Of a DNA stretch of 64,000 nucleotides, positions 27,808 to 63,935 are shown piece after piece. Position numbers and translations under genes: made by a program. The stretch is taken from the NCBI GenBank assembly GCA_040755395.1, contig JBFMAX010000010.1, positions 26,136-90,135 on the forward strand, in the 5' to 3' direction. Under the pieces are notes generated by a model. The model was not told where the DNA came from and made no database searches. It saw only the letters and a list, made by a program, of their open reading frames with translations. Source of the DNA: Nitrospirota bacterium (GTDB lineage Bacteria > Nitrospirota > Nitrospiria > Nitrospirales > Nitrospiraceae). Position 1 is the first letter of the stretch. Each line of letters opens with the position of its first letter.

Positions 27808-27809
27808 GG

Positions 27810-28628
27810 CTACACTCCACGATTTGCGATCAACTCGTCGTACAGGCCCCGAATCCTCTGCTCCGGCACGTCGGCGATGCCCGCGGCGCTGACGGTCTTG
27901 ACCGTCGGGAAAATCCCCCGGATGAGATCCGGCCCGCCGGTTCCCACGTCTTCATCCGCCGCGTTGTACAGGGCCAGGAGCGCCAGCTTGATGGCTTCGT
28001 CCTCGGAGAGGTTCTTGCGAAAATGCTCCCGCATCGTGTTGCGCGCATCCTTGCCGCCCGAGCCGACGGCGTGATAGTCGGATTCTTCATATCGCCCGCC
28101 GGTAATGTCGTACTTGAAGATCCGCCCCTCCTCCCTGGCGAAGTCGTAGCCGGCGTAGAGCGGCACCACGACGAGGCCCTGGAACACCATCGGCAGGTTG
28201 GCCTTGACCATCTGCCCCAGCTTGTTGGCCTTGCCTTCGCACGAGAGGGGGACGCCCTCCAACTTCTCGTAATGTTCCAGCTCGGTCTGAAACAGCTTGG
28301 CCATCTCGATGCACGGACCGGCGGCGCCCGCGATGGCCATGGCGCTGTGTTCGTCGATCCGGAAGACTTTTTCGATGCGGCGGTCCGCGATCTGAAATCC
28401 CTCGGTGGCCCGCCGATCCCCGGCCATGACGACGCCCTCCCGGTACTTGAGCGCCAGCACCGTCGTGCCCTGAGGGACGGGCAGTGCGGGGCCGCCGCCC
28501 GATGACTCGGGCGCCCGCTCTGTCGCCCGACTACGGCCGTAGATACCGGAGGCGAACTCCGGCCGCTGTTTCATCAACAGGTCGAAGAAACTGGAGTTAT
28601 CGTGGTCAGGGAAAAACGGCAGGTTCAT
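27810..28628 (-). CDS. prcB: 20S proteasome beta subunit PrcB (with propeptide)
   Basis: Propeptide MNLPFFPDHDNSSFFDLLMKQRPEF..., then PQG/TTVLALKY with the catalytic Thr. Confidence 0.9.
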   Translation of the reverse strand: MNLPFFPDHDNSSFFDLLMKQRPEFASGIYGRSRATERAPESSGGGPALPVPQGTTVLALKYREGVVMAGDRRATEGFQIADRRIEKVFRIDEHSAMAIAGAAGPCIEMAKLFQTELEHYEKLEGVPLSCEGKANKLGQMVKANLPMVFQGLVVVPLYAGYDFAREEGRIFKYDITGGRYEESDYHAVGSGGKDARNTMREHFRKNLSEDEAIKLALLALYNAADEDVGTGGPDLIRGIFPTVKTVSAAGIADVPEQRIRGLYDELIANRGV

Positions 28629-28698
28629 CGCGACGAACGACGCTCACTCTTGTCGGGATCGGCGGACAGGGGCCGTGGCAACGGCTTCGTCCGGATCA

Positions 28699-30198: not shown

Positions 30199-30213
30199 GG
30201 AGTCAAGCAGAAC

Positions 30214-31977
30214 TCAGAGGTAGTGCCCCGTGCTGATGGTTTCAATTTGCCGGGACTCCGCGGGACCTCCGCTGATAGTCCGGACATGGACGATCTTTTC
30301 GCCTTTCTTGCCGGCGATCTTGGCCCAATCGTCGGGGTTGGTCGTGTTGGGAAGATCCTCGTGTTCCTTGAACTCTTCGCGGATCGCCCGTATGAGATCC
30401 TCCGACCGGATTCCCCTTCCCTCCTGAGCGATGGCCCGCTTCACCGCGTACTTCTTGGCTCGGGAGACGATCCCCTCGATCAGGGCGCCGCTCGCAAAGT
30501 CCTTGAAATAGAGAATTTCTTTCTCGCCGTTGGCATAAGTCACTTCGATGAATTTGTTCTCTTCGGATGTGGCGTACATCGCGTCCACCGTCGTACCGAT
30601 CAACGATTCCACGAGCGCACGGGCGTCGCCGCCGTGACGCTGTAACTCGTCCTGGTCGAACGGCAGATCGGGAGTGACATACTTCGAAAAGATGTCGCGG
30701 GCGGCCGTGGCGTCAGGGCGCGAGACCTTCACCTTCACATCCAACCGGCCGGCGCGCAGGACCGCCGGATCGATGAGATCCTGCCGGTTGCTGGCTCCGA
30801 TCACGATGACGTTGCGCAGCCGCTCCACGCCGTCGATTTCGGAGAGGAACTGCGGCACGATCGTCGATTCGACATCCGACGAGATGCCGGTGCCGCGGGT
30901 GCGGAACAGCGCGTCCATTTCATCGAAGAAGACGATGACCGGGTGACCTTCCGAGGCCCGTTCCTTCGCCTTCTTAAACACCTCCCGGACCTGCCGCTCC
31001 GACTCGCCGACGTACTTGTTCAGCAGCTCCGGTCCCTTCACATGCAGGAAGTAGCTGCGGATCTGCTTGCCGGTGAGGTGTCCCAGTTTCTTGGCGATGG
31101 AGTTCGCGACCGCTTTCGCGATGAGCGTCTTGCCGCACCCGGGAGGCCCGTAGAGCAGCACCCCCTTCGGCGCGCTGAGCTTGTATTCGGCGAACAACTG
31201 CGGGTGCAAGAACGGCAACTCGACCGCGTCCCGAACCTGTTCAATTTCCTTCTGGAGCCCGCCGATGTGGCTGTAGTCCACATCCGGCACTTCCTCCAGC
31301 ACCAACTCCTCCGCCTCGGACTTGGGGAGTTTCTCGATCACATACCCGGAGCGCGGGTCATAGAGCAGATGATCGCCGACGCTGAGCCGTTCGTTCGTGA
31401 GCGGATCGCCCAGCTCCGCGACTTTCTCCTCGTCGAAATGCAGCGTGACGAGCGCACGGTTGCCCTCGATGACGTCCTTTAGCCGCACCACTTCCCCCTG
31501 GCCGTCGAACCCGCGTGCTTCGATGACGTTCAGCGCTTCGTTCAGGATCACTTCCTGCCCTTTGCGCAACTCCTTGCTCTTGATCGACGGATGAATGCTG
31601 ACCTTCATCTTCCGGCCGGACACGTACACGTTTGCCGTGCCGTCTTTGTTCACGCTCGAGAAGATGGCGTAGGTGGAGGGCGGCGCGGTGAGTTTGTCCA
31701 CTTCGGCCCGCAACGCTTCGATCTGAGCCTTCGCTTCCTGCAGCGTGGCGGCCAGTTTTTCATTTTGCCTGGTGGCTTGCTCGAGTTGATAACGGGACTG
31801 ATAGAGGCGGCGCAGCTCCTCCTCCATCGACTGGATCTGGACGCGGAGTTTTTCGACTTCGCGAAGGTGCTCGTCGTTCTTATGCATGGCCTCCAAATCT
31901 CCGTCGGACAAACGCTTTGTAATTTTCTTCACGGAATCGCGGAGGGACCGCAGTCGGCTCCCCTTGGACTCGGCCAT
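30214..31977 (-). CDS. arc: Proteasome-associated AAA ATPase Arc/Mpa
   Basis: N-terminal coiled coil, Walker A GPPGCGKT, Walker [10 protein letters not shown]. The C-terminus ...TGHYL fits the Mpa GQYL-type docking motif. Confidence 0.9.
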
Positions 31978-32827: not shown

Positions 32828-32906
32828 GCGAGGTGTCAGGGGTTGGGCGTGAGGTGACATTCCAGCTTCCTCTCACGCCTAACGCCTTACGCTTCACGCT
32901 TCACGA
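32828..32906. repeat. Heptamer-periodic inverted repeat array (GYGAGGT / YTNACGC)
   Basis: Left arm gcgaggt gtcaggg gttgggc gtgaggt. Right arm ctcacgc ctaacgc cttacgc ttcacgc ttcacga. Confidence 0.75.
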
Positions 32907-33736: not shown

Positions 33737-33818
33737 CGTTCAGCGTTCAGCTTTCAGCAATCAGCCGTCAGCGCAAATCCCATCCGCTGAGTGCCGACCG
33801 CTGATGACTGACTGCTCC
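33737..33818. repeat. Heptamer-periodic inverted repeat array (nnnTCAG / CTGAnnn family)
   Basis: Left arm cgttcag cgttcag ctttcag caatcag ccgtcag. Right arm ccgctga gtgccga ccgctga tgactga ctgctcc. It overlaps the 3' end of the thiS ORF. Confidence 0.85.
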
Positions 33819-49764: not shown

Positions 49765-49802
49765 GACGGGCCAAGCGGGCACCCGCTTGGCCCGTCGTTT
49801 TT
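49765..49802 (+). terminator. Intrinsic terminator of groEL
   Basis: gacgggccaagcggg-ca-cccgcttggcccgtc (15-bp stem) followed by GTTTTT. Lies between convergent groEL and glnE-N. Confidence 0.8.
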
Positions 49803-51505
49803 CACCCCCGCTTCAGGGCCCGCACGGCCGCCCGCAGCAGGCGAGAGCGGCCCGGCGTAAAGAAGAGTCGGCGGAACATGGCGTTGACGCGTTCCGTGTG
49901 GCGGCGATAGTCCGCAGTGAAGCGATCCACGGCTGTCTTTCGGTCGCGTCCGGCGTAGCCGAGCCGGATCGCGCAACGCTGTAACTCTTCTTCGGTCTCC
50001 GGCAACGCATGGGTTTGGAGGTCATGCACCATCTGCAGTTTGTGTTCCACATCGCGTAGAAAGACATAGGCCGCCGCCAGCGCCGACTGCTCCGTCGCCG
50101 ACAACAACCCCAGTTGCCGGAATCGACCCAGCGCTCCCAGAGTGCTGCGGTCCAGAATGCGCGGCAGGACTTTCCCGCATATCACCTGGACCGTTTGGAC
50201 GAGAAATTCGATTTCCCGAATCCCTCCAATGCCCAGCTTGACATTCCGCCGCTCATGACCGCGGTCGGCCATTTTCCCGTCGATCAGATCTTTGACCGCT
50301 CGCACCTCTTTCAGAACAGCCTGGACGTCCGCGCCGCGCTGTGAAGGCTCGGGACCGCCAAGAACGAAGGGCCGCGTGAGGCGCAGAAAGGCGCGCCCGA
50401 CCTCTCGGGAGCCGGCGACCGGCCAGGCCTTGAGCAGCGCGAGACGTTCCCACACTTCCCCCCTCGTCCGATAGTACCGGGCATAATCCTCCAAGGATCT
50501 CGCCAACCGCCCGACTGATCCCTCGGCGCGAAGCCTCAGATCCACACGAAAGACATGGCCTTCCCGCGTCGGAGCCGCAAGCGCCTGCGTCAGACGACGT
50601 GCAAGCTGTTCGAAATACTCTTCGTTGGAGAGTTCCTGCCGCACTCCTCGGGCGCTTCCGGCATCGGATGCATACACGTAAATCAGATCGACGTCGGAGC
50701 TGTAGTTGAGCTCTCCCCCGCCGAGTTTGCCCATGCCGATCACGGCAAATCCGGTTTCCACCGTCCGTCCCTTGGCGTCGCGGTGCATCGGGACTCCGTA
50801 TTTCCGTCGCAGGTCCTCCTCGACGATTTCGTATGCAGCCTGGATCAGAACCGCGGCGAGATCGGAGAGGGCGGCGGTGGTGTCCGGCACATCGTCCAGG
50901 CCCAGCAAATCGCGCACGCCGATGCGCAACATCTCCCGGCGACGGAACCGCCTGAGGGCTTCCAGCTTGAGCTCGACCGTCGTCAGGTTGGCCAAAGTCC
51001 GGCGCAGCGCTTGGTCCAAGGACGCGCGCGTCGGCCGTCTTGTCAGGACCTGCTCCTCTATCAGCCAATAGACGAGCAGCGGATCGCGGATCAGCGTCTG
51101 GGCGAGCGAATCGCTGTTGCCGAAAATCACGCACAGAAGATGCAACATGCGGGGCGAGCCATGCAGATATTCGAACAGCGCCGCACGGTTGATGCCGGAC
51201 TGTAGAAATCGCTCCCAATGATTCAATGCCTGGTCCGGATCGGCGGTCCGCGCAACGGATTCCAGCAGATCGCCCAACATCTTCGCCAAGAGATGCCGCG
51301 TGCGGGGTTCTCCGGCCATCGCTTGGATGTTGGCGTCGGCCTGCGCGACATCGGTCAGCCCGTAAGGCTTGAGGATGGCAGCGACTTCGCCGGAATCGAG
51401 TCTGGGCGCCAACAGGAGCGCGCTCGGGTCTGATGATCGCGCGTCGAGTTGAGACACCACCGGTCCTGTGCGCAGAGGGCGGGACACCGAAGCCTTCCGT
51501 GTCAT
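49802..51505 (-). CDS. glnE: GlnE N-terminal-half homologue (adenylyl-removase-type nucleotidyltransferase module) as a separate gene
   Basis: 567 aa. [22 protein letters not shown] matches the N-terminal NT motif of full-length GlnE ([20 protein letters not shown]). Confidence 0.75.
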   Translation of the reverse strand: [567 protein letters not shown]

Positions 51506-51669: not shown

Positions 51670-53928
51670 ATGACGATTGAAGAACGCATCAATGCGCTCA
51701 AGCTGCTGTGCCCCGATGTAGCGGAAGATATCCTGCGCGATTTCGTGTCGCGCATGGACCCCGACTACTTCGCGCACGTCCGGCCCGACGACATGGCGCG
51801 ACACGTCCGGCTCGCGTCGCGCCTGGACCCGGACCGCCCCTGCCAAGTCCACATTCAGCCCAAGGAAGACCCGTCGTTCGAGGTCGTGGTCGTCGCCTAC
51901 GACTACTTTTCGGAGTTCGCCACGATCTGCGGGCTGCTGTCCGCTTTCGGGCTCGACATCCAGGAAGGGCGTATCTACACGTTCTCCGACGCGGCGCCCG
52001 CCGTTGCGCCGCACATCGGATCGACATGGCCGTCGCGCCGCCCCAAAGCGCGTCCCGGCCTTGCGCGAAAAAAGATCGTCGATCTCTTTCGGGTTCGCCC
52101 CATGCCCGGCGTCGCGTTTTCTCCAGAGGAGCAACGCCGCCTGAGCGACGAATTGGACCGCATGATCCGCCTGCTGGATGCGCGGCAGTTCGAGCAGGCG
52201 CGCCAGCACGTGAACCGGCAGTTGGTCGAACGGCTCGGCAAACAGCGGGGCACCTTCACCGGCCTGCTGCAACCGGTTCAGATCACCTTCGACAACAGCC
52301 AGTCCGCGACCGACACGATCATGGACATCCGCTCGGACGACACGCCCGCGTTCCTGTATGCGTTCGCCAACGCGCTGGCCATGCGGAACGTCTACATCAC
52401 CAAAGCCCAGTTCGAGAACGTGGGTCCGAAGCTCCATGACCGCTTTTACGTCCGCGACCGTAACGGGCAGAAGATCGTCGATCCGGATGAACAGCAGAAC
52501 CTCCGGATCACCGCGGTCCTGATCAAACAGTTCACCCACGCGCTCACCTGGGCCCCCGACCCTGCAAAAGCGATCGAAGCCTTCGATCAGTTTCTGGACT
52601 TGATCCTCAAAGACGAGCGGGGTTCCAAGCGTCAAAAGGGCCTCGACTTCGTCAAAGACAAGAGGTCCTTTCCCCTGCTGGCCCACCTGCTGGGCGCCAG
52701 CGATTTCCTGTGGGAAGATTTCCTGCGCCGGCAGCATACCAATCTCCTGCCGATGCTGGAGACCTATCGGGTCGAGCCGCTCATCAAATCGAAGCAGGAG
52801 CTGGACAAGATCCTTCGGCGGCGCTTGGCGACCTGCAGAACCGACGAGCGGCGGCGGCAGGCGTTGAACCAGTTCAAGGACGAAGAGCTGTTCCGGATCG
52901 ACATGAAGCATCTTCTCGATCCCTCCACGAGCCTTGCCGACTTTTCGTTGGCCCTCACCCAGTTGGCCGAAGCCATCGTAAGTCGGAGCGTGACGGACTG
53001 CCGCGCGAAATTGGATCGTCTTCACGGCCGGCCGAGGCTCCCCGACCGCCGCCTTTGTCCATTCACGGTGCTGGGGATGGGCAAATTCGGCGGCCGTGAA
53101 CTGGGCTACGCCTCCGACATCGAAGTGCTCTTCGTCTATGGAGGCCCCGGCCGGACCGACGGCAGACACCCGCTGGACAACAGCGAGTACTTCGAACGGC
53201 TGGTCCAGGAACTCTTACGCTGGATCGAAGCCAAGCAGGAAGGGATTTTCCACCTGGATGTGCGCTTGCGGCCGCACGGGAGCAAGGGATCGCTGGTCAA
53301 CGCCCTCGACGAAGTCCGGACGTACTACAGTCCCGCGGGGCTGAGCGCCCCGTTCGAGCGGCAGGCGCTCATCAAGCTGCGCTACGTGGCCGGAGACGAG
53401 GGCTTGGGACGGCAGGTCGAAGCGCACCGCGATGCGTTCGTGTACAGTGGAGCGCCGTGGGATCTGGCGACGGCCCTCGACCTTCGGCGGCAGCAGGTGA
53501 AGGAACTGGTCGAACCGGGACGGATCAACGTGAAATACAGCCCGGGCGGGCTGATCGACGTGGAGTACGCCGTCCAGTATCTCCAACTGATGTACGGCCA
53601 TCAGCATCCGACGCTGAGAACCACGAACACGATGGACGCGCTGGCGGCCTTGGTCGAGACGGGACTGGTCGCCCGCGACGACGGTCTGCGTCTGCGCAAG
53701 GCCTACCTGTTTTTCAGAACTCTGATCGACGGGTTGAGGATGGTGCGGGGAAATGCAAAGGATCTGGTGCTGCCCGAGCCGGAATCGGACGACTTCGTAT
53801 TCCTCGCCCGGCGCGTCGGGTACACCGCCGAGGACTGGCAGGCCGGCGCAAGCCACTTACAATCCGACCTCGCCCGCCATATGGCCGACACCCGGGCGTT
53901 TTTCGAGCGACGGTTCGGCGCGGTCTGA
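51670..53928 (+). CDS. glnE: ACT-ACT-GlnE C-terminal-half (adenylyltransferase-type module) fusion protein
   Basis: 752 aa. Two ACT-like units: FEVVVVAYDYFSEFATICGLLSAFGLDIQEGRIYTF and TIMDIRSDDTPAFLYAFANALAMRNVYITKAQFEN...FYVRD. These are followed by GMGKFGGRELGYASDIEVLFVY, resembling the C-terminal NT motif of GlnE. Confidence 0.75.
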   Translation: MTIEERINALKLLCPDVAEDILRDFVSRMDPDYFAHVRPDDMARHVRLASRLDPDRPCQVHIQPKEDPSFEVVVVAYDYFSEFATICGLLSAFGLDIQEGRIYTFSDAAPAVAPHIGSTWPSRRPKARPGLARKKIVDLFRVRPMPGVAFSPEEQRRLSDELDRMIRLLDARQFEQARQHVNRQLVERLGKQRGTFTGLLQPVQITFDNSQSATDTIMDIRSDDTPAFLYAFANALAMRNVYITKAQFENVGPKLHDRFYVRDRNGQKIVDPDEQQNLRITAVLIKQFTHALTWAPDPAKAIEAFDQFLDLILKDERGSKRQKGLDFVKDKRSFPLLAHLLGASDFLWEDFLRRQHTNLLPMLETYRVEPLIKSKQELDKILRRRLATCRTDERRRQALNQFKDEELFRIDMKHLLDPSTSLADFSLALTQLAEAIVSRSVTDCRAKLDRLHGRPRLPDRRLCPFTVLGMGKFGGRELGYASDIEVLFVYGGPGRTDGRHPLDNSEYFERLVQELLRWIEAKQEGIFHLDVRLRPHGSKGSLVNALDEVRTYYSPAGLSAPFERQALIKLRYVAGDEGLGRQVEAHRDAFVYSGAPWDLATALDLRRQQVKELVEPGRINVKYSPGGLIDVEYAVQYLQLMYGHQHPTLRTTNTMDALAALVETGLVARDDGLRLRKAYLFFRTLIDGLRMVRGNAKDLVLPEPESDDFVFLARRVGYTAEDWQAGASHLQSDLARHMADTRAFFERRFGAV

Positions 53929-53937: not shown

Positions 53938-54741
53938 TCAGTCCTCGTCGACCACTCCTTCCAACGCCAGCCCGGACAACTCGTCATAGGCCCGCAGCAG
54001 ATCGGAGACCGAGAGCACGCCGATGATCGTGCCGTCCTCAGTAACCGGCAAGTGCCGAATTCCGTTCTCCTTCATAAGGCGGATCGCCTCGGTCATCGGT
54101 TCGGTGTCCTCAATCGTGAGGATCGACTTGCTCATGCACTGCTTGACGGTTGTGGTATTGGGATCGAGGCCGCGCGCCACCGCTTTTCGGCTGAGATCGG
54201 TGTCCGTGATGATGCCGATATATCGAAGGCCGTCATCGACCAGGAGGGACCCGACTTTCCACTTTTGGAGCAGCCGGCCGGCCTCCTTGATCGTCGCATC
54301 CCGATGGATGCTGCGGACATCGTGCGACATGTAGTCCGCCACCTTCACCCCGGCCAACACACTCGTTCGCCCGTTCCTGGAAGCCACCGCCGCCTTTTTC
54401 GCCTCCAGCTCCGAGATACAGCTTTCGATGACGCGCTTCCGCTGCTGAAGGCTTTCGCGATAGATATCCTGCGCCCCCCCTTCCTGCGCCTCTTCGGGCA
54501 AATTGACCAAGCCCGCCGCCTCGCCCAACTTGGCGTACTGGTAGGCTTCCAGTAGATCGGACGCCTCGCCGAAGACCCGGCTGATCAGTTGTTCGGTGGC
54601 GACGTCGAACTCATCGATGGAGGCGGACGACTTTTTTCTGGAGAGAAACGGCTGGAACTTCGCGAGCTGCTGGCGGAACCGTTCGAGGTCCCGGTCAAGA
54701 AACAGACCCCTGCTTAAGCTGGTCTTCATGGGCTTCTGCAT
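53938..54741 (-). CDS. CBS-pair domain protein with an uncharacterised N-terminal domain
   Basis: C-terminal tandem CBS motifs: VADYMSHDVRSIHRDATIKEA...GSLLVDD...GIITDTDL and ILTIEDTEPMTEAIRLMKENGIRHLPV. Confidence 0.8.
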   Translation of the reverse strand: MQKPMKTSLSRGLFLDRDLERFRQQLAKFQPFLSRKKSSASIDEFDVATEQLISRVFGEASDLLEAYQYAKLGEAAGLVNLPEEAQEGGAQDIYRESLQQRKRVIESCISELEAKKAAVASRNGRTSVLAGVKVADYMSHDVRSIHRDATIKEAGRLLQKWKVGSLLVDDGLRYIGIITDTDLSRKAVARGLDPNTTTVKQCMSKSILTIEDTEPMTEAIRLMKENGIRHLPVTEDGTIIGVLSVSDLLRAYDELSGLALEGVVDED

Positions 54742-54864
54742 ATCCGCTCCCTCACCTCGTCATTGGGAGCCCAAGCATACTCCAACGCCATGGGCCGCTC
54801 AAGAGGGGAGGGAGGCGCGGAGAAAGCGCGGGTCTTCCGCCAAGCAGCCCGTTCGGCCGCCGCC

Positions 54865-56280
54865 TCATCCTCCTCCCCGCTTGCCTTGCATCTCTTTCTC
54901 ATAGAATTCCAACATCTGGGCGATTTCATCCTTGGTCATCCCCTTCTCGATCCACTTATGGCCCTCCTTGCGAAGCATCTCTTCCGCCGCCTCGGGCGAC
55001 AACTCCCGCACCAGCGGCAGGAACTTGGTATAGAAATGCTTGGCCACTTCGTAGAAGCCCTGCCAGTGGACGTAATCCGGCGCGACCTTGGAAAGCCCGT
55101 GTCTGGCTCTCCGGCCCTCGTGGTGCCACAGTTCGTAGAACACCCATTCGATCTTTTCGTCAAACGGGGTCGGCGTGATCTTCTTCATTTCTTTAAGCCT
55201 GTCCATCGCCGCCTTGGCCGGTTTTCCAAATTTTTCGTTGTACAGCGTGATCCCCTGGTCCATTTGCGTGAAAAATCGCTCGACAATCTCGGGACTGTGG
55301 CACGAAGAACAGACCTGCTGCATGGCTTTCCGCCGGACTTCGTAATTCTCCAGCCGCGTCGAGATGACCGGACGTAAGGTCCAACTGATCCGGTCGCCCA
55401 CATCGTGGGTCACCTCCTGCGTCGTCGTCGCGCTCATATGGCAGGTTGCGCAAGTGGGATACAAATAATCTCTGCCCGGGTGCCACTTCTCCGCCGGTTC
55501 AGCGAGCTTCATCTTGTCCTTGTTCGCGCTGAACATGACGCCGTGCTTGCTCTCGTAGTACGCCTCAATCTGGGGATGATCCGGTCCCATGTGACAGCGG
55601 CCGCAGCTTTCCGGTTGCCGGGCCTGGGCGACGGAGAAACTATGTCGCGCATGGCAGGCGGAACAGGTCCCCTTTGATCCGTCCGGATTCACGCGGCCGA
55701 TTCCGGAATTGGGCCAGGTAGCCGGATGGAGCTTTCCGTTTTCCATCACCTTGACGACGCTTCCGTGGCAGCCGGCGCATCCGGCCGTGACTACTTCGGG
55801 CCCCTCCACTACGTTGCCCAGGAAATTGTCCAATGACCCGATGAACTGCGCACCCTTGGCGTGGTGGGACCTCGCAAACTCCTGCGCTTCCTTGTCATGG
55901 CAGCGCATGCAGTCTTTCGGCGTGACCAGGGTCGAGACCACCGTGCCGTAGTGGTCAAAGGCGTCAGGTTCGCCCTTCTCCGCCCGGTGGCATTCCACGC
56001 ACCCGATGCCTTTCGGCGCATGCCTGCTGACCTTCCAGTCGTTGATGCCCCCGATCGACACGTCTTTGGCCAGATGGCAGTCGATACACTTCTTGTTCTC
56101 GGCCGAGATGAACGGCCGCAGGCCGCCGCCTCGCCGCTCTTCCACCTGAACGTATCCGACGCCGGTCAGCGCGAGGAACAACACCAAGCACAGCCCGCCG
56201 ATCAGGTAGCGGGTGAAATTCAATTTGCCGTTCGGCGCCGGCTCCTGGTATCGGCTCAGTTCGCCGTCTGTCTCGTCCAC
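54865..56280 (-). CDS. Membrane-anchored octaheme cytochrome c (HAO/octaheme nitrite-reductase-like family)
   Basis: Eight CxxCH motifs: CIDCH, CVECH, CMRCH, CAGCH, CSACH, CGRCH, CATCH, CSSCH. One N-terminal TM helix. GTG 56280 is preceded by GGGAGGAA. TTG 56316 (track start) is an alternative. Confidence 0.85.
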   Translation of the reverse strand: MDETDGELSRYQEPAPNGKLNFTRYLIGGLCLVLFLALTGVGYVQVEERRGGGLRPFISAENKKCIDCHLAKDVSIGGINDWKVSRHAPKGIGCVECHRAEKGEPDAFDHYGTVVSTLVTPKDCMRCHDKEAQEFARSHHAKGAQFIGSLDNFLGNVVEGPEVVTAGCAGCHGSVVKVMENGKLHPATWPNSGIGRVNPDGSKGTCSACHARHSFSVAQARQPESCGRCHMGPDHPQIEAYYESKHGVMFSANKDKMKLAEPAEKWHPGRDYLYPTCATCHMSATTTQEVTHDVGDRISWTLRPVISTRLENYEVRRKAMQQVCSSCHSPEIVERFFTQMDQGITLYNEKFGKPAKAAMDRLKEMKKITPTPFDEKIEWVFYELWHHEGRRARHGLSKVAPDYVHWQGFYEVAKHFYTKFLPLVRELSPEAAEEMLRKEGHKWIEKGMTKDEIAQMLEFYEKEMQGKRGGG

Positions 56281-56320
56281 GGGTTCCTCCCACAACAGGC
56301 GATGGGCACGAGGCAAGTGG

Positions 56321-56381
56321 CTAGATGCGGAGAACGATTGCTTTTTCCTCTAGCCTCTAGCCCATCTCGTCCCTAGCCTCC
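56321..56381. repeat. Heptamer-periodic repeat (CCTCTAG family) with a partial inverted arm
   Basis: Left ggctagatgcggag. Right ctctagc ctctagc ccatctc gtcccta gcctccc. Confidence 0.6.
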
Positions 56382-56383
56382 CA

Positions 56384-57421
56384 TCACATTCTTGTATCCA
56401 GAATCATCAGCGTCGCGACCGCGACCACAACCAGGGTTCCGACCACCGCATTGACGATCGCCATCGGCCAACCCCGTTTCGACAATTCCTTGTCGATAAA
56501 CGGGTACACGACGAACACCACCGCTCCGCCGAACAGGCTCCAAAGCGCGACCGGTCCGGGCAGCAACGTGATCCACATGTACGGCGCCGAGAAATACCAA
56601 GGCGGCGAAACATCCACAGCGACCTCCTGGAGATTGGCCGGCTGGCCGAGGGTCGGAGGAAAGATCATGACCAGATCCACAATCAAGACCAGCAATCCGA
56701 CCGCGATCGCACTCATCGTCAACGTATGCTCCGGGTAGAACGGATGGTACCCCCGGCTCCCCTGCACATCCGCAAAGCCAATGAGTCGGACCACCAGCAC
56801 GTGACCCAGGACGAGGCACGCCAGCAAAACGGGCAAGAGTTTCGTGTGCAAATCGTAGAGCCGCAGAAGTGTGTTGGCTGAGACCTCTTCCCCGCCGCGC
56901 AGGAGATGGAGCAGCGGCGTCCCGACAATCGGCAGCGTCCCCAGCATGTTGGTCACGACCGTCATCCCCCAGTATGAGACGTTGTCGTACACCAACGAAT
57001 AGCCTGTGAATCCCATCGCGAAGGTCACGAACAGCACGATCGAGCCGGTGACCCATTTCAGTTCACCGGGTGCCCGGTAGGCGCGTGTCAGGAAGACGCG
57101 AATCACATGAAAAAGCAAAAACAGGATCATCAGGTCGACGGAAAACTTATGCAGACCGCGCACGAACCAACCGAGATAGATCTCGTTCGTGATCTGCTCG
57201 ACGCTCTCGTAAGCCTTCTCCGGCGACGGCACGTAGTAAAACGTCAGCATCAGACCGGTTGCCACCAGAAGCCCGAACAGGGTGAGCGGAATCGCCCCCA
57301 GCGTATAGGGCCACCAGTCGAGGTGTTGCGGCAGGTCCTTCTGGATGTAGTCGATCCACGTCTTGGTCTTGCCGTCTTGCTCGGCCGATTTGACGTGAAT
57401 CTGCGATACCAATGACTTCAT
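56384..57421 (-). CDS. Cytochrome b (fused b6/subunit IV-type)
   Basis: Helix B GLHKFSVDLMILFLLFH (H-x13-H) and helix D LHTKLLPVLLACLVLGH (H-x14-H), ~8 TM segments. ATG 57421 overlaps the Rieske stop (ATGA). Confidence 0.85.
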   Translation of the reverse strand: MKSLVSQIHVKSAEQDGKTKTWIDYIQKDLPQHLDWWPYTLGAIPLTLFGLLVATGLMLTFYYVPSPEKAYESVEQITNEIYLGWFVRGLHKFSVDLMILFLLFHVIRVFLTRAYRAPGELKWVTGSIVLFVTFAMGFTGYSLVYDNVSYWGMTVVTNMLGTLPIVGTPLLHLLRGGEEVSANTLLRLYDLHTKLLPVLLACLVLGHVLVVRLIGFADVQGSRGYHPFYPEHTLTMSAIAVGLLVLIVDLVMIFPPTLGQPANLQEVAVDVSPPWYFSAPYMWITLLPGPVALWSLFGGAVVFVVYPFIDKELSKRGWPMAIVNAVVGTLVVVAVATLMILDTRM

Positions 57422-57927
57422 CCCGTCCACCAGCTCTTAGCTATCAGCCTTCCGCTGCCAGCTTCCCCTACATTCTCCTCCTCCTTCATTTGAATATTCA
57501 CGTACAACTGACCGTTGCGTCTCACGACCTGATAGCGATCCAGCGGGCGCGGCGGCGGGCCGGCGATGTTGCGCCCGGTTTTGTCGAACACGCCCTGGTG
57601 GCACGGACACACGAACTGCCCGCGTTCCTTGCTCCAAGAAACCAGACAGCCGAGATCAGTGCAGCGCCGGGAAAAGGCCGTGATCCCTTCCTCGGTCTTG
57701 AGCACCATGATCTTATGACCGCCGAGATTCATCGGCACCGGTTCGCCCATCGGCACGCGCGCTTCGGCTCCGATCAAGACCGCTTCGTACTGTCTCGGCT
57801 TTTGGCTCGGCACCAGGAACTGCATAAAACGCAGCGCCAGCGCGCCCATCCCGAAGAGCGCCCCGAACGCCATCACGGCCTGGCTCAGAAACCGGCGCCG
57901 CCCGATGTCGTTGTGAATCACAGCCAT
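57418..57927 (-). CDS. Rieske-type [2Fe-2S] protein with an atypical box I (C-T-D-L-G-C)
   Basis: Twin-arginine signal GRRRFLSQAVMAFGALFG. Box I is CTDLGC (tgc act gat ctc ggc tgt, read directly) and box II is CPCH. Confidence 0.85.
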   Translation of the reverse strand: MAVIHNDIGRRRFLSQAVMAFGALFGMGALALRFMQFLVPSQKPRQYEAVLIGAEARVPMGEPVPMNLGGHKIMVLKTEEGITAFSRRCTDLGCLVSWSKERGQFVCPCHQGVFDKTGRNIAGPPPRPLDRYQVVRRNGQLYVNIQMKEEENVGEAGSGRLIAKSWWTG

Positions 57928-57943
57928 GGGAACCGCCGGGAAT

Positions 57944-58025
57944 CGTTCATCGTGAATCGTGAATCGGAGAGGCCTTTCTTACGTTTAACGAATAACGTTT
58001 CACGTTTAACGTCGTCACGAATACG
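57944..58025. repeat. Heptamer-periodic inverted repeat array (CGTKAAY / RTTMACG family)
   Basis: Left arm cgttcat cgtgaat cgtgaat. Right arm tttaacg aataacg tttcacg tttaacg tcgtcacg aatacg. Confidence 0.85.
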
Positions 58026-59181
58026 CCTTCTCCCCATGCTGCGCCAGATCGAGGCCCAGAATTTCGGCCTCCTGGTCGACGCGCGACGGCATCAGCCGCT
58101 GAAGGGCTTTGATCAAGAGCATCGTCATCACACCGGCGTAGGCCCAGGCCACGACAGCGGCAACCACCTGGGCCACGAACTGATAAGGATAGCCGTAGAA
58201 CAGGCCGTCGCTCCCGTCGGGATTGACTGCCGTAGAGGCGAACAACCCGGTAGAGATCATGCCCCACGTCCCGCCGACGCCGTGCATGCCGAACACATCC
58301 AGCGAGTCGTCGTACCCCAAGATCGGCTTCACAAAGTTCACGGCCATATAACACAGCCCTCCGGCCCCGATGCCGATCACCATCGCCGACAGCGGACCGA
58401 CATAGCCGGCCGCCGGCGCGATCGCCACCAGGCCGGCCACGGCCCCGCTGACCGTGCCCAACGCCGTCGGCTTGTCCCGTTGCAGCCACTCCGCAGCGGT
58501 CCAGGCCAATGCAGCGGAAGCCGCAGCCAATTGAATCGCCACGAACGCGCCGGTGACTGCCGTCATCGATGCCGCACCCGGTCTGCCTGCAAAACCCCAC
58601 CACCCCACCCACATGAAGCCTGCGCCGCAGATCGAGAGGGGAAGATGATGCGGCATCATGTCCGTCCGTCCGAATCCCTTCCGCGGTCCGATCAGGATCG
58701 CAGCCACCAGGGCCGCCACCCCGGCGCTAATGTGGATGACCGCCCCTCCGGCGAAGTCCAGGCTGCCCAGATTGGCCAGCCACCCGCCGCCCCAGAGCCA
58801 GGACGCCAACGGCGCGTAGACCAGCGCCATCCATAACGTCCCGAACAGCAGAAAGAACGGCAATCGGATCCGCTCCACCACCGCGCCGGCTACCAGTGCG
58901 AGCGCCAACGCCGCGGCCACGGCGGAAAAGATCGACGGCAACGAGCCGGCATCCTGCCCCGAATCGGGTGCCAACCCGACCGCACGGCTCACACCCGACG
59001 CGTCGTCGGCACACAGCCATCCGATCGACGCCAGCAAGAGCGCCGAGAGGGGAAGCGCCATGGCGTTGAGCGCGTTCTTCCTCCGCACCATCCCGCTGTA
59101 AAACAGCGCCACGCCCGGAATGGTCAGGAGGGTGAACGTGTTGGCGACGAGCAGCCAGAGAATCTGGTCGGAACGAGCCAT
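58015..59181 (-). CDS. amt: Ammonium transporter (Amt family)
   Basis: MARSDQILWLLVANTFTLLTIPGVALFYSGMVRRKN...LDFAGGAVIHISAGVAALVAA. ATG 59181 overlaps the upstream TAA (TAATG). Confidence 0.9.
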   Translation of the reverse strand: MARSDQILWLLVANTFTLLTIPGVALFYSGMVRRKNALNAMALPLSALLLASIGWLCADDASGVSRAVGLAPDSGQDAGSLPSIFSAVAAALALALVAGAVVERIRLPFFLLFGTLWMALVYAPLASWLWGGGWLANLGSLDFAGGAVIHISAGVAALVAAILIGPRKGFGRTDMMPHHLPLSICGAGFMWVGWWGFAGRPGAASMTAVTGAFVAIQLAAASAALAWTAAEWLQRDKPTALGTVSGAVAGLVAIAPAAGYVGPLSAMVIGIGAGGLCYMAVNFVKPILGYDDSLDVFGMHGVGGTWGMISTGLFASTAVNPDGSDGLFYGYPYQFVAQVVAAVVAWAYAGVMTMLLIKALQRLMPSRVDQEAEILGLDLAQHGEKAYS

Positions 59182-59414
59182 TAGGCTGCGGCTCTCTTGA
59201 GAGAGACTCGATACTCGCAACGCCGGACCGGCTGAAGCGAGACCATCCCGGCTCGGCTCAGCCGGTCGACCGCCAGAAATACCTGCGACCAACTGGCATC
59301 GGTCAAAAAATAGGCGAGTGCTTCCAACGTCTGCGGGTTTTGCGCGCGCAAGGCCTCAAGAACCCGCTCCTCGGTGGACGTGCAATGGATAAAGTCGTGG
59401 GCTGACGCGCTCAT
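59181..59414 (-). CDS. Small (77 aa) winged-helix-like protein translationally coupled to amt
   Basis: GGGAGG lies 5 nt before ATG 59414. MSASAHDFIHCTSTEERVLEALRAQNPQTLEALAYFLTDASWSQVFLAVDRLSRAGMVSLQPV. The family assignment is only fold-level. Confidence 0.5.
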   Translation of the reverse strand: MSASAHDFIHCTSTEERVLEALRAQNPQTLEALAYFLTDASWSQVFLAVDRLSRAGMVSLQPVRRCEYRVSLKRAAA

Positions 59415-59438
59415 GATGACCTCCCTTGCAGAGAGATC

Positions 59439-59454
59439 AGCAACTCCGGTGCCA
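59439..59454 (-). promoter_or_regulatory. Sigma54 (RpoN) promoter
   Basis: Minus strand cTGGCAC-cggag-TTGCTg, an exact match to TGGCAC-N5-TTGCW. Lies 24 nt upstream of ATG 59414. Confidence 0.7.
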
Positions 59455-59515: not shown

Positions 59516-59529
59516 CGACAATTTTGTCG
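59516..59529. promoter_or_regulatory. 14-nt perfect palindrome CGACAATTTTGTCG upstream of the sigma54 promoter (candidate activator site)
   Basis: Centre lies ~75 nt upstream of the -24 element. Confidence 0.35.
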
Positions 59530-59670
59530 GAAAACAGACAAAAAGGAAGGGAGGCAGACAGAGGGTGGCCCCGCTTTCCGCTGTGCTCGCGCAACGCGCG
59601 CAAGATCCATTTTCCGAAAGCGGGCGGTCCGGGGGGCCCATTGCGCTTCAAATGCTGCCGGGAGCGTCGG

Positions 59671-60060
59671 TCAGCAGGTGGGAATGGACCTTGTACGGGC
59701 CAGGTAGGAAGCCACGAATTCGTTGAGGCGCGCCTCGGCTTCGGGAGCGATCCTGACGATTTGCAGTCCGAATTCGAGGCCGTTCATCCAGCGGACGGCT
59801 GCTCGTTCCACGTCCAGAGGCCTCGGGTCATTCGGAAGAAACACGCGCAGGGTGAGGTTCATATCGAGGTAGATCGGGTGGTTGCCTTCGATACGATAGC
59901 CGTTGATGGACAGGTCGGACACGGTTCCGGTCCCCATGAAATCTTCAGCGAGGTAGTAGACGAAGCATCGCACGGGGATTCGACGGTACAGCCGCTTGCT
60001 TGGGCGGTCGCCCATGCCGTCGTTCTGTCTCTCTGATCCGGAGGTTGAGCCCATGGTCAT
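59671..60060 (-). CDS. PilZ-domain protein
   Basis: RLYRRIPVR (RxxxR) and DLSINGYRI (D.S..G) c-di-GMP-binding motifs. Confidence 0.75.
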   Translation of the reverse strand: MTMGSTSGSERQNDGMGDRPSKRLYRRIPVRCFVYYLAEDFMGTGTVSDLSINGYRIEGNHPIYLDMNLTLRVFLPNDPRPLDVERAAVRWMNGLEFGLQIVRIAPEAEARLNEFVASYLARTRSIPTC

Positions 60061-60550: not shown

Positions 60551-62461
60551 CTAGAAGGGCGAGTCAAGAACCGCGCGGACTTTCTCCAGCAGCACGTCCG
60601 GCGTGAACGGTTTCTGGACGAAAGCCGGAACCGGATCGGATGGATCCCGACGGAGTGCGACGTGATCGGTGTATCCGGACATATACAGCACTTTGATCTG
60701 CGGACGGATCGACTGGGACAGTGTCGCCAATTCCCGGCCGTTCATCCCGGGCAGCAACACATCGGTCAGCAGCAAGTGAATGGGACCCGAGTGCTCGCGA
60801 CAGAGCGACACCGCTTCTTCGCCGCTTTGCGCTTGAAGGACGGCGTAGCCGTTGGATTCCAGGATCGTGCAGACCAGGGCGCGCACCATGCCGTTGTCTT
60901 CGACGACCAGCACGGTTTCGGATACGCTCGGGGCACGGCTGCGAACCGCTGCTTCCTCCCCGATGCGAACGTCGGTAACGCGCGGAAAGTACAGTTTGAA
61001 GGTCGTGCCCCGACCCAGCACGCTGTCGACGGTGATGAACCCGCCGCTTTGCTTGACGATCCCGTATACGGTCGACAACCCCAGCCCCGCGCCCTGCCCG
61101 GGCTTGGTGGTAAAGAACGGATCGAACACATGCGCCAGAGTATGGGAGTCCATACCCATCCCCGTGTCCCGGACCAGCAGGCGAACGTACAGACTCGGCT
61201 CGATATGCGGACCTGGTCCGATATCGGCGGCCACCACGTTGGCCGTTTCCAATGTCAGCGTACCGCCTCCGGACATCGCTTCACGGGCGTTGACTGCCAG
61301 ATTTACCAGCACCTGTTCAAGTTGGCCGGGATCGATTTTCACGCCGCCGACGCCGGAACCGGAGACCACGACCAAGGCGATGTCGTCGCCTAACAACCGG
61401 CGCAACAGGTCGGCGTAGTCGGCCAGGACCGCGTTCAAGTCCAGAAGTTTGGGTTGCACCACCTGCTTCCGGCTGAACGTGAGGAGTTGATCGGTCAGCT
61501 TGCTCGCTTGTTCACCGGCTTTCTTGATCTCCGTGACATATCCGCGAAGCGGGTCCGGCCGGTTAAGCCGGCTGAGGATCAGTTCGCAATAAGCTGTGAC
61601 GACGGTGAGCAGATTGTTGAAATCGTGCGCCACCCCTCCGGCAAACCGCCCCAGCGCTTCCATTCGCTGAGCGTCACGCAGGTGCTGCTCCAATTGCCGC
61701 CGCTCCGTGATGTCCACCAACATCGTGACCATCGGGGAATCAGCCGCCGCACCAAGGACCTTCATGAAGACGAGGGCCGCGCGGATGTCGCCGCTCCTGC
61801 GCCGGAATGCGCATTCGACGTTTGAAACCGCGCCTTCGTCGCGCAGTCTCTTGAGGATCTTGTCCCGTTCAGCCGGAACGGCCCAGAGGTTCAGCTCCTG
61901 AACGGTCTTCCCGATCATCTCCTCCGGTGCATATCCGAACAGCTCGGCATAGCGCTCGTTCACCTCGAGGAGCCGACCCTCGACCGTGCCCAAGCTGATC
62001 GGAATCGGACCTGCCCGGAACACGGCGGTGAGTCTTTCCCGGGCTCGTTCCTCCTTCGCTTGTTCTCGCCGGAGTTTGCCGCACTCGGCCGCCTCGTTCA
62101 GTTCCCGCTCAATCGTGGACACCAGCGACGAGAGGTCTTCTTTCAAACACAGGTTTCTGGCGCCGGCCCTGATCAGCGAAACCGCCGCCTTTTCGCCGAT
62201 CCGATCGGAGACGATCAGGAGAGGCACATCGAGTCCTTTGCGCTTCAACACCGACAGCGCCCCGAGCGCGCTGAATTCCGGCAAGACGTGATCGGCGAGG
62301 ATGAGGTCCCAGGGTTGGCGTTCCACAGCCTCTTCAAAAGCGGGTTCGATGGCCACTCGTTCCACCGACGGCTCATACCCCCCGCGCTGCATGGCCTGCG
62401 CCAGCCGTTCGACTTCTTCGTCCGATTCGTTGACGCAGAGGACGCGGAGGAGCCTGCCCAT
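60551..62461 (-). CDS. Hybrid sensor kinase/response regulator (REC-PAS-HisKA-HATPase-REC)
   Basis: ATG 62461 (MGRLLRVLCVNESDEE...DLILADHVLPEF). PAS motif NERYAELFGYAPEEMIG. H-box GGVAHDFNNLL. DTGMGM and GQGAGLGLS. C-terminal receiver LLLTDVLLPGMNG. Confidence 0.85.
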   Translation of the reverse strand: MGRLLRVLCVNESDEEVERLAQAMQRGGYEPSVERVAIEPAFEEAVERQPWDLILADHVLPEFSALGALSVLKRKGLDVPLLIVSDRIGEKAAVSLIRAGARNLCLKEDLSSLVSTIERELNEAAECGKLRREQAKEERARERLTAVFRAGPIPISLGTVEGRLLEVNERYAELFGYAPEEMIGKTVQELNLWAVPAERDKILKRLRDEGAVSNVECAFRRRSGDIRAALVFMKVLGAAADSPMVTMLVDITERRQLEQHLRDAQRMEALGRFAGGVAHDFNNLLTVVTAYCELILSRLNRPDPLRGYVTEIKKAGEQASKLTDQLLTFSRKQVVQPKLLDLNAVLADYADLLRRLLGDDIALVVVSGSGVGGVKIDPGQLEQVLVNLAVNAREAMSGGGTLTLETANVVAADIGPGPHIEPSLYVRLLVRDTGMGMDSHTLAHVFDPFFTTKPGQGAGLGLSTVYGIVKQSGGFITVDSVLGRGTTFKLYFPRVTDVRIGEEAAVRSRAPSVSETVLVVEDNGMVRALVCTILESNGYAVLQAQSGEEAVSLCREHSGPIHLLLTDVLLPGMNGRELATLSQSIRPQIKVLYMSGYTDHVALRRDPSDPVPAFVQKPFTPDVLLEKVRAVLDSPF

Positions 62462-62612
62462 CGAAAAAGCCGCTTTCGAGGTGTGAGCGAAAGGATTACA
62501 CACATACCCCCTTGCGCCTCGCGAACTCAACTGGAAAATCGCGCTCCCCCCAAAAGAGGAAGGGGGTAGGAATCCAGAGGGGGCCCGGGTGGGGAAACCA
62601 GACGCGGCTGCC

Positions 62613-63935
62613 TTACGAGTACGCGCGCTCGTTGTGTTGGCTGATATCCAACCCGATCGACTCCTCCTCGGGCGACACCCGGAGACCCACTGCGCGTTGC
62701 ACCACCTTCAGAATCGCAAACGTTCCCGCACAGGAAAACGCCGCGACCGTGAGCGCAGCCAACATCTGGACCCCGAACAAGCCGGGGTTGCCGAAGAAGA
62801 GACCGTCGGCGCCGCCGGGGTTGACGGCCTTGGAAGCAAACAGTCCTGTGGCGAGAATGCCGAAGATGCCACCGACGCCATGGATGCCGACGACGTCCAG
62901 CGAGTCGTCATAGCCGAACTTCCCTTTCCAGATGATCCCGAGATAACTCAGAACGCCGGCCGCCAATCCGATCACCAGCGCGGAGAACGGCCCCACATAG
63001 CCGGCGCCCGGCGTGACCGTCGCAAGGCCGGCAATGGCGCCGCTAGCGACCCCCAAGACCGTCGGCGTTCCCCGATGGACCCACTCGATCAGCACCCAGG
63101 CCAACGCCCCGGCCGCCGCCGCGGTGTGCGTGGCGACAAACGCCGTCACTGCGGTTTGATTCGCCCCAAGGGCGCTGCCCGCGTTGAAGCCGAACCACCC
63201 GAACCAGAGCAGCCCCGTCCCTAAGAGCGTCATCGGGAGATTGTGCGGCGCCATGTAATCGGTTCCGTAGCCGTGACGCACGCCGAGCGCCAGCGCGCAG
63301 ACAAGGGCGCTGACCCCGGAGCTGATATGCACGACGGCGCCTCCGGCGAAATCCAGCGCCCCCAGGCTCCCCAGCCACCCTCCGCCCCACAGCCAATGAG
63401 CGACCGGCGCGTACACAAACAGGGACCAGAGCGCGGCGAACAACACCAGCGCGCCGAATTTCATCCGCTCGGCGAAGGCGCCGGTAATCAAGGCCGGGGT
63501 GATCGCCGCAAACATGAGTTGAAACACCATGAACGCTTGATGGGGAACGGTGGGACCGTAGGTTGCGTGCGGCGCCATCCCCACCCCGTTCAACCCGACC
63601 CAGTCGAGCCCGCCGATGACGCCCCATAGATCGGGACCGAAGGCCAGACTGTACCCGACCGACACCCACAGCACACTGACCAGACACAGAATGACGAAAC
63701 TCTGCATGATCGTCCCGAGCACGTTCTTGCTCCGGACCAGACCGCCGTAAAACAGCGCCAGGCCCGGCACGATCATCGCCAGCACCAAGGCCGACGAGAC
63801 CAACACCCACGCCGTGTCCGCGGCATTGACCGCGGCTGCGCCGGCCGCAGACGATCCCTCCTGCGCCCAGGTTGTTTCTCCGACGATCAATGAAATCCCC
63901 CATAGGCACGCCGCCCTCCGTCCGGTCTTCTGCAT
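62613..63935 (-). CDS. amt: Ammonium transporter (Amt family) with a signal peptide
   Basis: MQKTGRRAACLWGISLIVGETTWAQE..., then LDFAGGAVVHISSGVSALVCA. 440 aa. Confidence 0.9.
   Translation of the reverse strand: MQKTGRRAACLWGISLIVGETTWAQEGSSAAGAAAVNAADTAWVLVSSALVLAMIVPGLALFYGGLVRSKNVLGTIMQSFVILCLVSVLWVSVGYSLAFGPDLWGVIGGLDWVGLNGVGMAPHATYGPTVPHQAFMVFQLMFAAITPALITGAFAERMKFGALVLFAALWSLFVYAPVAHWLWGGGWLGSLGALDFAGGAVVHISSGVSALVCALALGVRHGYGTDYMAPHNLPMTLLGTGLLWFGWFGFNAGSALGANQTAVTAFVATHTAAAAGALAWVLIEWVHRGTPTVLGVASGAIAGLATVTPGAGYVGPFSALVIGLAAGVLSYLGIIWKGKFGYDDSLDVVGIHGVGGIFGILATGLFASKAVNPGGADGLFFGNPGLFGVQMLAALTVAAFSCAGTFAILKVVQRAVGLRVSPEEESIGLDISQHNERAYS

Follow-up and report, generated by a model that had tools for sequence, protein, structure and literature searches.

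Nitrite oxidisers that lack NirA still need ammonium from nitrite, and the locus described here raises the question of how they might obtain it. The locus lies in a 64,000-nucleotide (nt) stretch of a Nitrospirota bacterium (contig JBFMAX010000010.1, positions 26,136 to 90,135 of the forward strand; GenBank assembly GCA_040755395.1), hereafter the window. Here, from 59454 to 53938 on the minus strand, a sigma54 promoter element is followed by genes for a small winged helix-turn-helix (wHTH) protein, an ammonium transporter (Amt), a Rieske protein, a cytochrome b, an octahaem cytochrome c and a CBS-pair protein. This is the published assimilatory nitrite-reduction cluster of Nitrospira moscoviensis, N. 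japonica and many Nitrospirales, already known as ‘ONR plus Rieske/cytochrome b’ (ONR, octahaem nitrite reductase) and the accepted candidate for the nitrite-to-ammonium step in nitrite oxidisers without NirA. We consider it likely that the locus forms an operon under nitrogen control, with which a Nitrospira reduces nitrite to ammonium for assimilation, in the periplasm and at the expense of quinol. A prediction made earlier from the sequence of the window alone (the original prediction) had reached the same interpretation, which is right but not novel, because the cluster is described in Nitrospira papers. What sequence comparison adds here is a conserved sigma54 promoter with an upstream palindrome, an apparent swap of cassettes behind that promoter, a reassignment of the octahaem enzyme to the HAO/IhOCC clade, and a Rieske protein with an aspartate substitution that accompanies a PPWY-type cytochrome b.

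In N. moscoviensis, ONR and the two Rieske/cytochrome b genes upstream of it were highly co-expressed with nitrite as sole nitrogen source, at similar levels and in aerobic nitrite-oxidising chemostats, and no ONR expression was seen when ammonia was supplied; the same paper attributes the hypothesis of quinone coupling to Koch 2015 (Mundinger 2019, PMC6606698). Expression of ONR in N. japonica was detected by reverse-transcription PCR in a study that also places ONR or nirA beside glnA/amtB/glnK (Ushiki 2018, PMC5767232), and a comparison of Nitrospirales published in 2025 found petBC next to ONR in most ONR genomes and reports NapC as partner for lineage IV (PMC12342949). These three papers match the statement, in the original prediction, that an octahaem gene beside a complex-III-like module had been noted in Nitrospira genome papers and, together with the promoter conservation and cassette swap described below, support the quinol-linked, nitrogen-regulated and assimilatory character proposed for it.

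All five genes that had been predicted are present on the minus strand. The wHTH gene (59181-59414; 77 residues) comes first, and its stop codon overlaps the start codon of the Amt gene (58015-59181; 388 residues, PF00909 E 4e-95) in the sequence TAATG (59183-59179). An 87-nt spacer (57928-58014), in which Tandem Repeats Finder detects two oppositely oriented tandem arrays of period 7 (57940-57966 and 57981-58012), leads to the gene for the Rieske [2Fe-2S] subunit (57418-57927; PF00355, twin-arginine signal/anchor), whose stop codon in turn overlaps the start of the cytochrome b gene (56384-57421; 345 residues, PF00033/PF13631) in the sequence ATGA (57421-57418). A second spacer of 103 nt (56281-56383), which contains an array of CCTCTAG and a hairpin with imperfect pairing, precedes the octahaem cytochrome c gene (54865-56280; 471 residues from GTG 56280, with an N-terminal membrane anchor), and the gene for a CBS-pair protein (53938-54741; 267 residues, two PF00571 domains) follows. 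The two overlaps, the repeat-filled spacers and the downstream CBS gene all agree with what had been described.

Relatives of the octahaem protein are found in more than 590 species genomes. Its identity to Nitrospira proteins, that of N. moscoviensis among them, is 84-91%, and its identity to those of two metagenome contigs, L081 and L082 (L numbers denote related loci), is 99%; the nearest genome match is a Nitrospiraceae metagenome-assembled genome (MAG), with ~90% identity in ONR. The gene order, beginning with a second, more distant Amt gene and continuing through wHTH, Amt, Rieske, cytochrome b and ONR, recurs in every Nitrospira locus long enough to contain it. The Amt-Rieske-cytochrome b-ONR arrangement also occurs in two Thermodesulfobacteriota/‘Deltaproteobacteria’ MAGs, and the Rieske-cytochrome b-ONR trio is found without Amt in Cloacimonadota, Myxococcota, Planctomycetota and other phyla. 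Throughout the Amt-linked sub-clade, comprising the window together with L001-L013, L081-L083 and L090, the Amt gene lies directly upstream of the Rieske gene (18 of 18 loci).

The strongest genomic argument as to what the octahaem enzyme makes comes from loci in which the module is replaced. In L085, L088 and L089, the same sigma54 promoter and the palindrome upstream of it precede a wHTH gene whose product is 60-61% identical to that of the window. The ONR module is replaced there by ~2.5 kb of other DNA, after which the same CBS gene returns, with GlnE behind it in L085 and L089 too. In L089, the annotated locus, the replacing DNA (3612-6282) encodes NirC (PF01226) and NirA (PF01077/PF03460). 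Because the promoter, the wHTH gene and the CBS flank are the same, the ONR module and NirC-NirA are best read as alternative nitrite-reducing cassettes in one slot. The transporter of each cassette matches the location of its reductase, Amt accompanying the periplasmic enzyme and NirC, for nitrite import, the cytoplasmic one. This swap argues for ammonium, destined for assimilation, as the product of the octahaem enzyme. The CBS gene, which is the downstream flank of both types of cassette, is absent in L001 and is separated from ONR by 0.7-1.7 kb of extra DNA in L004, L008 and L009; it is a conserved flank of the slot and probably lies outside the core operon.

The promoter common to both cassettes is an exact sigma54 -24/-12 element, TGGCAC-N5-TTGCT (TGGCACCGGAGTTGCT; 59439-59454, minus strand), 40 nt ahead of the wHTH start codon and in the orientation of the gene. 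It is the sole exact match to TGGCAC-N5-TTGCW in the window, where 0.03 would be expected by chance. The element lies 39-40 nt from the wHTH start codon in L081-L089 and L001 as well, and 101 nt from it in L003. Centred ~80 nt upstream of the -24 element is a candidate activator site, TTTTGTCTGTTTTCCGACAAAATTGTCG (59516-59543, minus strand), which is unique in the window and contains TGT-N10-ACA, the consensus of NifA-type activator sites. An alignment of eight loci, whose wHTH proteins are 57-92% identical, contains two invariant islands: one at the promoter, CTGGCAC..AGTTGCTGA, the adjoining bases of which vary, and a second ~80 nt upstream, TTTTGTC-N8-(G/T)ACAAAATTGTCG (59543-59516). The ~55 nt between the islands are variable. 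Promoter and palindrome are kept together in ten related loci.

These data bear out the consensus sigma54 promoter of the original prediction, and its proposal of RpoN-type control in part: the conserved promoter and palindrome of the ten loci speak for such control, whereas no sigma54 consensus, strict or relaxed, was found upstream of the homologues in N. moscoviensis (L008), L002, L006 and L013, nor anywhere in the 21-kb locus of N. moscoviensis. As the element is missing from these four loci, the predicted RpoN control is not universal among Nitrospira loci but lineage-specific. Sigma54-dependent and NifA-like regulators have been reported in N. moscoviensis.

Transcription from this promoter is likely to read through all five genes, because the two internal spacers contain no terminator-like site and do not fold significantly. 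The RNA of the Amt-Rieske spacer has no unusual structure (z +1.8), and that of the cytochrome b-ONR spacer has a fold of -39.5 kcal/mol that is not significant (z -1.4), with a hairpin that lacks a trailing U-tract; a role of either spacer as attenuator or terminator was rejected because neither fold is significant. Scans for terminators and sigma70 promoters between 53.5 and 60.5 kb returned nothing above the shuffled expectation, and no promoter-like site on the minus strand. The Amt-Rieske spacer is also variable between loci, being only 10-15 nt long in N. moscoviensis and L003, which suggests that read-through is the ancestral arrangement. Beyond the last of the five genes, the 123-nt gap between the octahaem and CBS genes (54742-54870) has a fold of -65 kcal/mol that is more stable than shuffled sequence (z -2.3) and has no U-tract; the gap may serve as a terminator of non-canonical type or in RNA stability. 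An Rfam scan returned no RNA family anywhere in the window.

The octahaem protein has exactly eight CxxCH motifs, no CxxCK motif and one N-terminal hydrophobic helix, in keeping with the membrane-anchored octahaem cytochrome of the HAO type that had been proposed, and eight CxxCH motifs are present in 121 of 121 family sequences. Its best solved relative is IhOCC (4qo5; E 2e-46, or 1.6e-64 with a profile); the matches to HAO (4fas/1fgj) are at ~1e-22, to HDH (6hif) at 8e-18 and to Pfam PF13447 at 1e-30. The match to NrfA (1qdb) is marginal and covers a short stretch (E 2e-3), and TvNiR is absent among the matches at E <= 0.01. Both the Lys-ligated CxxCK haem of the TvNiR/NrfA clade and sequence similarity to that clade are wanting. 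Soares et al. 2022 (PMC9250108) distinguish a clade 1, with HAO, HDH and IhOCC, from a clade 2, with NrfA and ONR. By sequence comparison the enzyme of the window is a member of the HAO/IhOCC clade 1 and not of the TvNiR/NrfA clade 2, so that ‘ONR’ as used in the Nitrospira papers is a functional label only.

Within the putative active site, a distal Asp-His pair follows the sixth haem motif, where CGRCHMGPDHPQ aligns with CATCHSGVDHNN of HAO; D246 and H247 are invariant in the 121 family sequences. Whether or not the cross-linking tyrosine of HAO is present, which the original prediction had named as a check, has a mixed answer. The profile-to-PDB alignment of the octahaem protein ends at HAO residue 404, short of Tyr467. 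In a MAFFT alignment, Tyr467 stands opposite Y415 of the window protein across a three-residue indel; the HAO sequence used was checked against HMMER prints over residues 69-335 only, and its residue 467 is Tyr. A tyrosine is aligned in the window protein, but the column holds Tyr in 74, Phe in 46 and a gap in one of the 121 family sequences, is likewise mixed between Tyr and Phe in the 18 Nitrospira-group sequences (the window protein and its 17 closest homologues), and corresponds to Trp in IhOCC. The alignments suggest that a P460-type cross-link is not a conserved property of the family, which argues for, and fits, an enzyme of the reductive type. The AlphaFold2 model of the protein has low confidence (mean pLDDT 56.6, from a 17-sequence alignment), and only the N-terminal helix was taken from it. 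Translation most likely starts at GTG 56280 (MDETDG...) and not, as earlier supposed, at TTG 56316: the former has a GGGAGGA Shine-Dalgarno sequence and the support of homologues, and its (A/G)TG-GAC-GAG start is kept in four related loci.

The Rieske protein begins with a GRRRFLS twin-arginine motif and one hydrophobic helix. Its Rieske domain and this motif agree with the Tat-exported (twin-arginine translocated) Rieske protein expected, but the protein is not canonical. In place of the CxHxGC of box I, which with box II supplies two Cys and two His ligands, it has CTDLGC (C89-T-D91-L-G-C94), and when solved Rieske proteins are aligned with it by HMMER, Asp91 falls opposite the first of their two ligand His residues. 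Box II is C107-P-C-H110, and both disulfide cysteines are intact. Ser and Tyr residues near box II raise the Rieske potential in the bc1 and b6f complexes; the context of box II here, CPCHQGVF, lacks both. The substitution is conserved, CTDLGC being present in 119 of the 120 best Rieske homologues as well as in each of the 18 Amt-linked loci. A full-text literature search for CTDLGC found no paper, and we found no published description of an Asp-for-His Rieske variant. The Rieske reading frame has 169 residues in the window, L082 and a single database homologue (P0279), against 148 in most homologues; it is the 21-residue C-terminal extension (57418-57480) that creates the ATGA overlap with cytochrome b.

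The partner cytochrome b (PF00033 E 1e-48) has two His pairs as haem ligands, H91/H105 and H192/H207 (the second spaced by 15 residues, as in the b6 type), and seven hydrophobic segments, from which it can be read as a cytochrome b6 fused to a subunit-IV-like part, as had been anticipated. The motif at its quinol-oxidising (Qo) site is PPWY (residues 273-276), a documented natural variant in the bc1 complex of Acidithiobacillus (PMC4122944). The two substitutions covary perfectly: the Asp-type Rieske protein always occurs with a PPWY cytochrome b and the His-type with PEWY, the more distant ONR-linked clusters having a C[TP]HLGC Rieske protein, a PEWY cytochrome b and no Amt. This coupling suggests that the Qo site of the Amt-linked sub-clade is remodelled, and the remodelling probably lowers the Rieske potential to suit the feeding of the octahaem enzyme. 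A more specific proposal, which we advance tentatively and hold to be somewhat short of probable, is that the Amt-linked modules of Nitrospira and a few Thermodesulfobacteriota-like MAGs have a naturally re-engineered Qo site around a Cys2-His-Asp-ligated, low-potential and differently protonating Rieske cluster that is devoid of the Ser/Tyr hydrogen-bond donors and tuned for an HAO-type reductase in place of a cytochrome c. An Asp91 that binds iron would make this, to the extent of our search, the first Rieske centre known from nature to have an Asp ligand within a Rieske/cytochrome b complex.

The two genes at the head of the operon were characterised in the same way. The transporter has both twin-His motifs of the ammonium transporter that it had been called (GGAVIHISAG and DVFGMHGVGG), scores 340.8 bits against TIGR00836, just below the cut-off of 343.3, and is 45-48% identical to the second Amt of the window (62613-63935). 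The 77-residue protein has no match in Pfam or NCBIfam. Its AlphaFold2 model (pLDDT 83.8) is a three-helix bundle with a beta-hairpin wing (H-H-H-beta-hairpin), which Foldseek matches, at TM scores of 0.6-0.7, to the DNA-binding domains of Fur, PerR and MarR, to the winged helix of DprA and to DsrD; the wHTH-like character first suggested for it is borne out by the model. A profile search collected 756 cluster representatives at E <= 1e-3, a family of proteins of ~70-100 residues with the motif SWxQVFLAVDRLSR. The gene has the same position in Nitrospira loci, and it is in the nitrite-assimilation slot that its close relatives are found. Beside the relatives at 41-49% identity, the search for nitrogen-cluster genes found none, and the neighbours in L110, the one locus of that group annotated, are unrelated housekeeping genes, so the family as a whole is not nitrogen-specific. 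The protein is probably a small DNA-binding regulator of the operon, which is the simplest guess, or it may have an accessory, DsrD-like role.

Taken together, these data suggest the following scheme. A putative enhancer-binding protein would bind the TGT-N10-ACA site and activate the sigma54 promoter, and the resulting transcript would span the wHTH, amt, Rieske, cytochrome b and octahaem genes. The Rieske/cytochrome b pair would oxidise quinol at its remodelled Qo site. No cytochrome c1, cytochrome f or fused c domain is encoded between 53.9 and 59.5 kb, where the sole c-type cytochrome is the octahaem protein, so the Rieske cluster may hand electrons directly to the membrane-anchored HAO-like enzyme. 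This enzyme would then reduce nitrite to ammonium, with six electrons, outside the cytoplasmic membrane, and the co-encoded Amt would import the ammonium for glutamine synthetase. We infer the physical complex, the electron path, the ammonium product and a Q-cycle from the set of genes. The setting is favourable to this scheme, in that two GlnE-like genes and the second Amt are nitrogen-regulation neighbours. Several points weigh against it. No enhancer-binding protein of the GAFTGA type is encoded in the window, and the sigma54 consensus is missing from the four homologous loci named above; the sizes of the spacers (87 and 103 nt) leave room for internal promoters; the Asp substitution puts the formation of a normal Rieske cluster in question; and the literature yielded no biochemistry, on product or electron donor, for any member of this clade, in agreement with the original prediction. 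Moreover, a Kuenenia enzyme of the HAO family without the Tyr cross-link makes nitric oxide (NO) and not ammonium (cited in PMC9250108).

This last point leads to an alternative in which the octahaem enzyme resembles the Kuenenia HAOr, either as a nitrite reductase whose product is NO or as a means of detoxifying hydroxylamine or NO. Its place in the HAO/IhOCC clade is compatible with such a role, as the sole biochemically studied bacterial HAO without the cross-link that we found in the literature makes NO from nitrite, and Tyr415 of the window protein falls at the MAFFT-aligned position of HAO Tyr467. An NO-forming enzyme would, however, sit oddly behind an Amt gene that is directly upstream in 18 of 18 sub-clade loci, in a module that swaps with NirC-NirA behind the same promoter and is expressed on nitrite as sole nitrogen source and not with ammonia (PMC6606698). 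IhOCC, the closest solved relative, is moreover listed as a nitrite reductase (PMC9250108). We therefore regard an NO-forming or detoxifying role as very unlikely. Nearly as improbable, in our judgement, is a module that is mainly respiratory, carrying out dissimilatory nitrite ammonification with energy conservation by a Q-cycle when oxygen is low, H2 or formate supplying the electrons and assimilation being a by-product. A quinol-oxidising Rieske/cytochrome b architecture is typical of energy-conserving chains, many of the more than 590 species genomes with octahaem relatives belong to anaerobes, and the trio occurs without Amt in Myxococcota, Planctomycetota and Cloacimonadota. Yet the Amt-linked sub-clade, with its Asp-type Rieske protein and PPWY cytochrome b, is distinct from these Amt-less clusters, the module sits among nitrogen-regulation genes and shares its sigma54 promoter with nirA loci, and it is expressed in aerobic nitrite-oxidising chemostats (PMC6606698).

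A narrower alternative concerns the operon and not its product. The sigma54 promoter might drive only the wHTH gene, perhaps with amt, while the Rieske/cytochrome b genes and ONR have their own promoters in the repeat spacers. The length of these spacers and their lineage-specific repeat arrays would allow for this, as would the strong expression reported in N. moscoviensis (PMC6606698), whose 21-kb locus has no sigma54 consensus. Set against it are the lack of promoter-like sites on the minus strand and of terminator-like sites in the spacers, the 10-15-nt Amt-Rieske spacer of N. moscoviensis and L003, with read-through as the ancestral state, and the similar expression reported for ONR and Rieske/cytochrome b (PMC6606698). 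Separate promoters are a possibility that we consider doubtful, and a single nitrogen-regulated operon for assimilatory nitrite reduction is the reading that we prefer.

The interest of the locus rests on what accompanies the known cluster: the promoter and activator site common to both cassettes, the placing of the enzyme in its clade and, most of all, the Asp-type Rieske protein with PPWY. For nitrite oxidisers without NirA, drawing on quinol instead of ferredoxin would spare costly reverse electron flow. Being common to nirA loci, the sigma54 promoter and candidate activator site make nitrogen regulation in Nitrospira more accessible to study; the Rieske variant, a conserved exchange of His for Asp that goes with PPWY, is a concrete biophysical target; and the HAO/IhOCC assignment corrects what the name ‘ONR’ suggests.

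Several features elsewhere in the window were also recorded. Two divergent GlnE-like genes (PF03710 and PF08335) lie at 49802-51505 (minus strand) and 51670-53928 (plus strand) and adjoin the slot in related loci too; the longer has an N-terminal ACT/GlnD-like region, and the pair resembles a glutamine-synthetase adenylyltransferase system that has been split or duplicated. Between the second Amt gene and the operon are genes for a PilZ-domain protein (59671-60060, minus strand), which is kept in L001, L081 and L082, and for a hybrid PAS-histidine kinase with two receiver domains (60551-62530, minus strand), which is kept in L081 and L082 and absent in L001. Period-7 tandem arrays of 3-5 copies with a CGT/ACG core, often two in opposite orientation, occupy many intergenic spacers (753-823, 1472-1503, 4417-4510, 5544-5571, 7241-7322, 32872-32905, 33737-33773 and 57940-58012), and the motif ACGTTTAACG, allowing at most one mismatch, has 19 matches in the window against 1.8 expected. 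The Amt-Rieske spacers of related loci hold heptamer arrays of other sequence. Intergenic heptamer repeats have been described for Beggiatoaceae and cyanobacteria (PMC4679880), and our literature search found none reported in Nitrospira. A Pup-proteasome cluster (25649-31977) comprises two genes of the Pup-ligase family, a proteasome subunit and an AAA ATPase, and the rest of the window consists of housekeeping genes such as ffh, rimM, trmD, rplS, rnhB, ftsEX, uvrB and groEL.

Among known systems, the closest is that of N. moscoviensis and N. japonica, where the orthologues follow one another in identical order (wHTH, Amt, Rieske, cytochrome b, ONR) and for which the same function has been proposed. 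The N. moscoviensis proteins are 84% (ONR), 80% (cytochrome b), 75% (Rieske) and 51% (wHTH) identical to those of the window and share the CTDLGC and PPWY motifs. N. moscoviensis, which is another species, differs in having neither the sigma54 promoter nor the upstream palindrome seen in the lineage of the window, which has longer spacers with heptamer arrays, whereas the Amt-Rieske spacer of N. moscoviensis has none. IhOCC of Ignicoccus hospitalis (4qo5) resembles the window enzyme as a membrane-associated octahaem protein of the HAO-type clade without a P460 cross-link, but is archaeal and aligns with it over only parts of the chain. TvNiR, the ‘ONR’ of Thioalkalivibrio, and NrfA have in common with the window enzyme the proposed reaction from nitrite to ammonium and the ONR name, but belong to the other clade, and the window enzyme lacks their CxxCK catalytic haem motif.

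The parallel with anammox bacteria drawn in the original prediction is apt, as the Rieske/cytochrome b complexes of Kuenenia hold the closest solved Rieske proteins. Kuste4569-4574 of Kuenenia stuttgartiensis resembles the window in its b6f-like Rieske/cytochrome b, in multihaem cytochromes c that replace cytochrome f and in an HAO-like octahaem subunit. The anammox complexes differ in having extra hexa- or octahaem subunits, an NAD(P) oxidoreductase subunit and a split b6/subunit IV; compared with them, the set in the window is minimal, with a Rieske protein, a fused cytochrome b and ONR. The Kuenenia Rieske clusters are canonical, with two His and two Cys ligands and potentials of +303 and +335 mV (PMC12954380), whereas the Rieske protein of the window has Asp in box I. 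Finally, the NirC-NirA of other Nitrospira shares with the window the slot, the promoter, the palindrome, the wHTH gene and the CBS/GlnE flank, and differs from it in the enzyme itself: NirA works in the cytoplasm with sirohaem/[4Fe-4S], takes its electrons from ferredoxin and depends on nitrite being imported, whereas the predicted counterpart in the window is periplasmic and haem-based, presumably draws on quinol and needs ammonium import.

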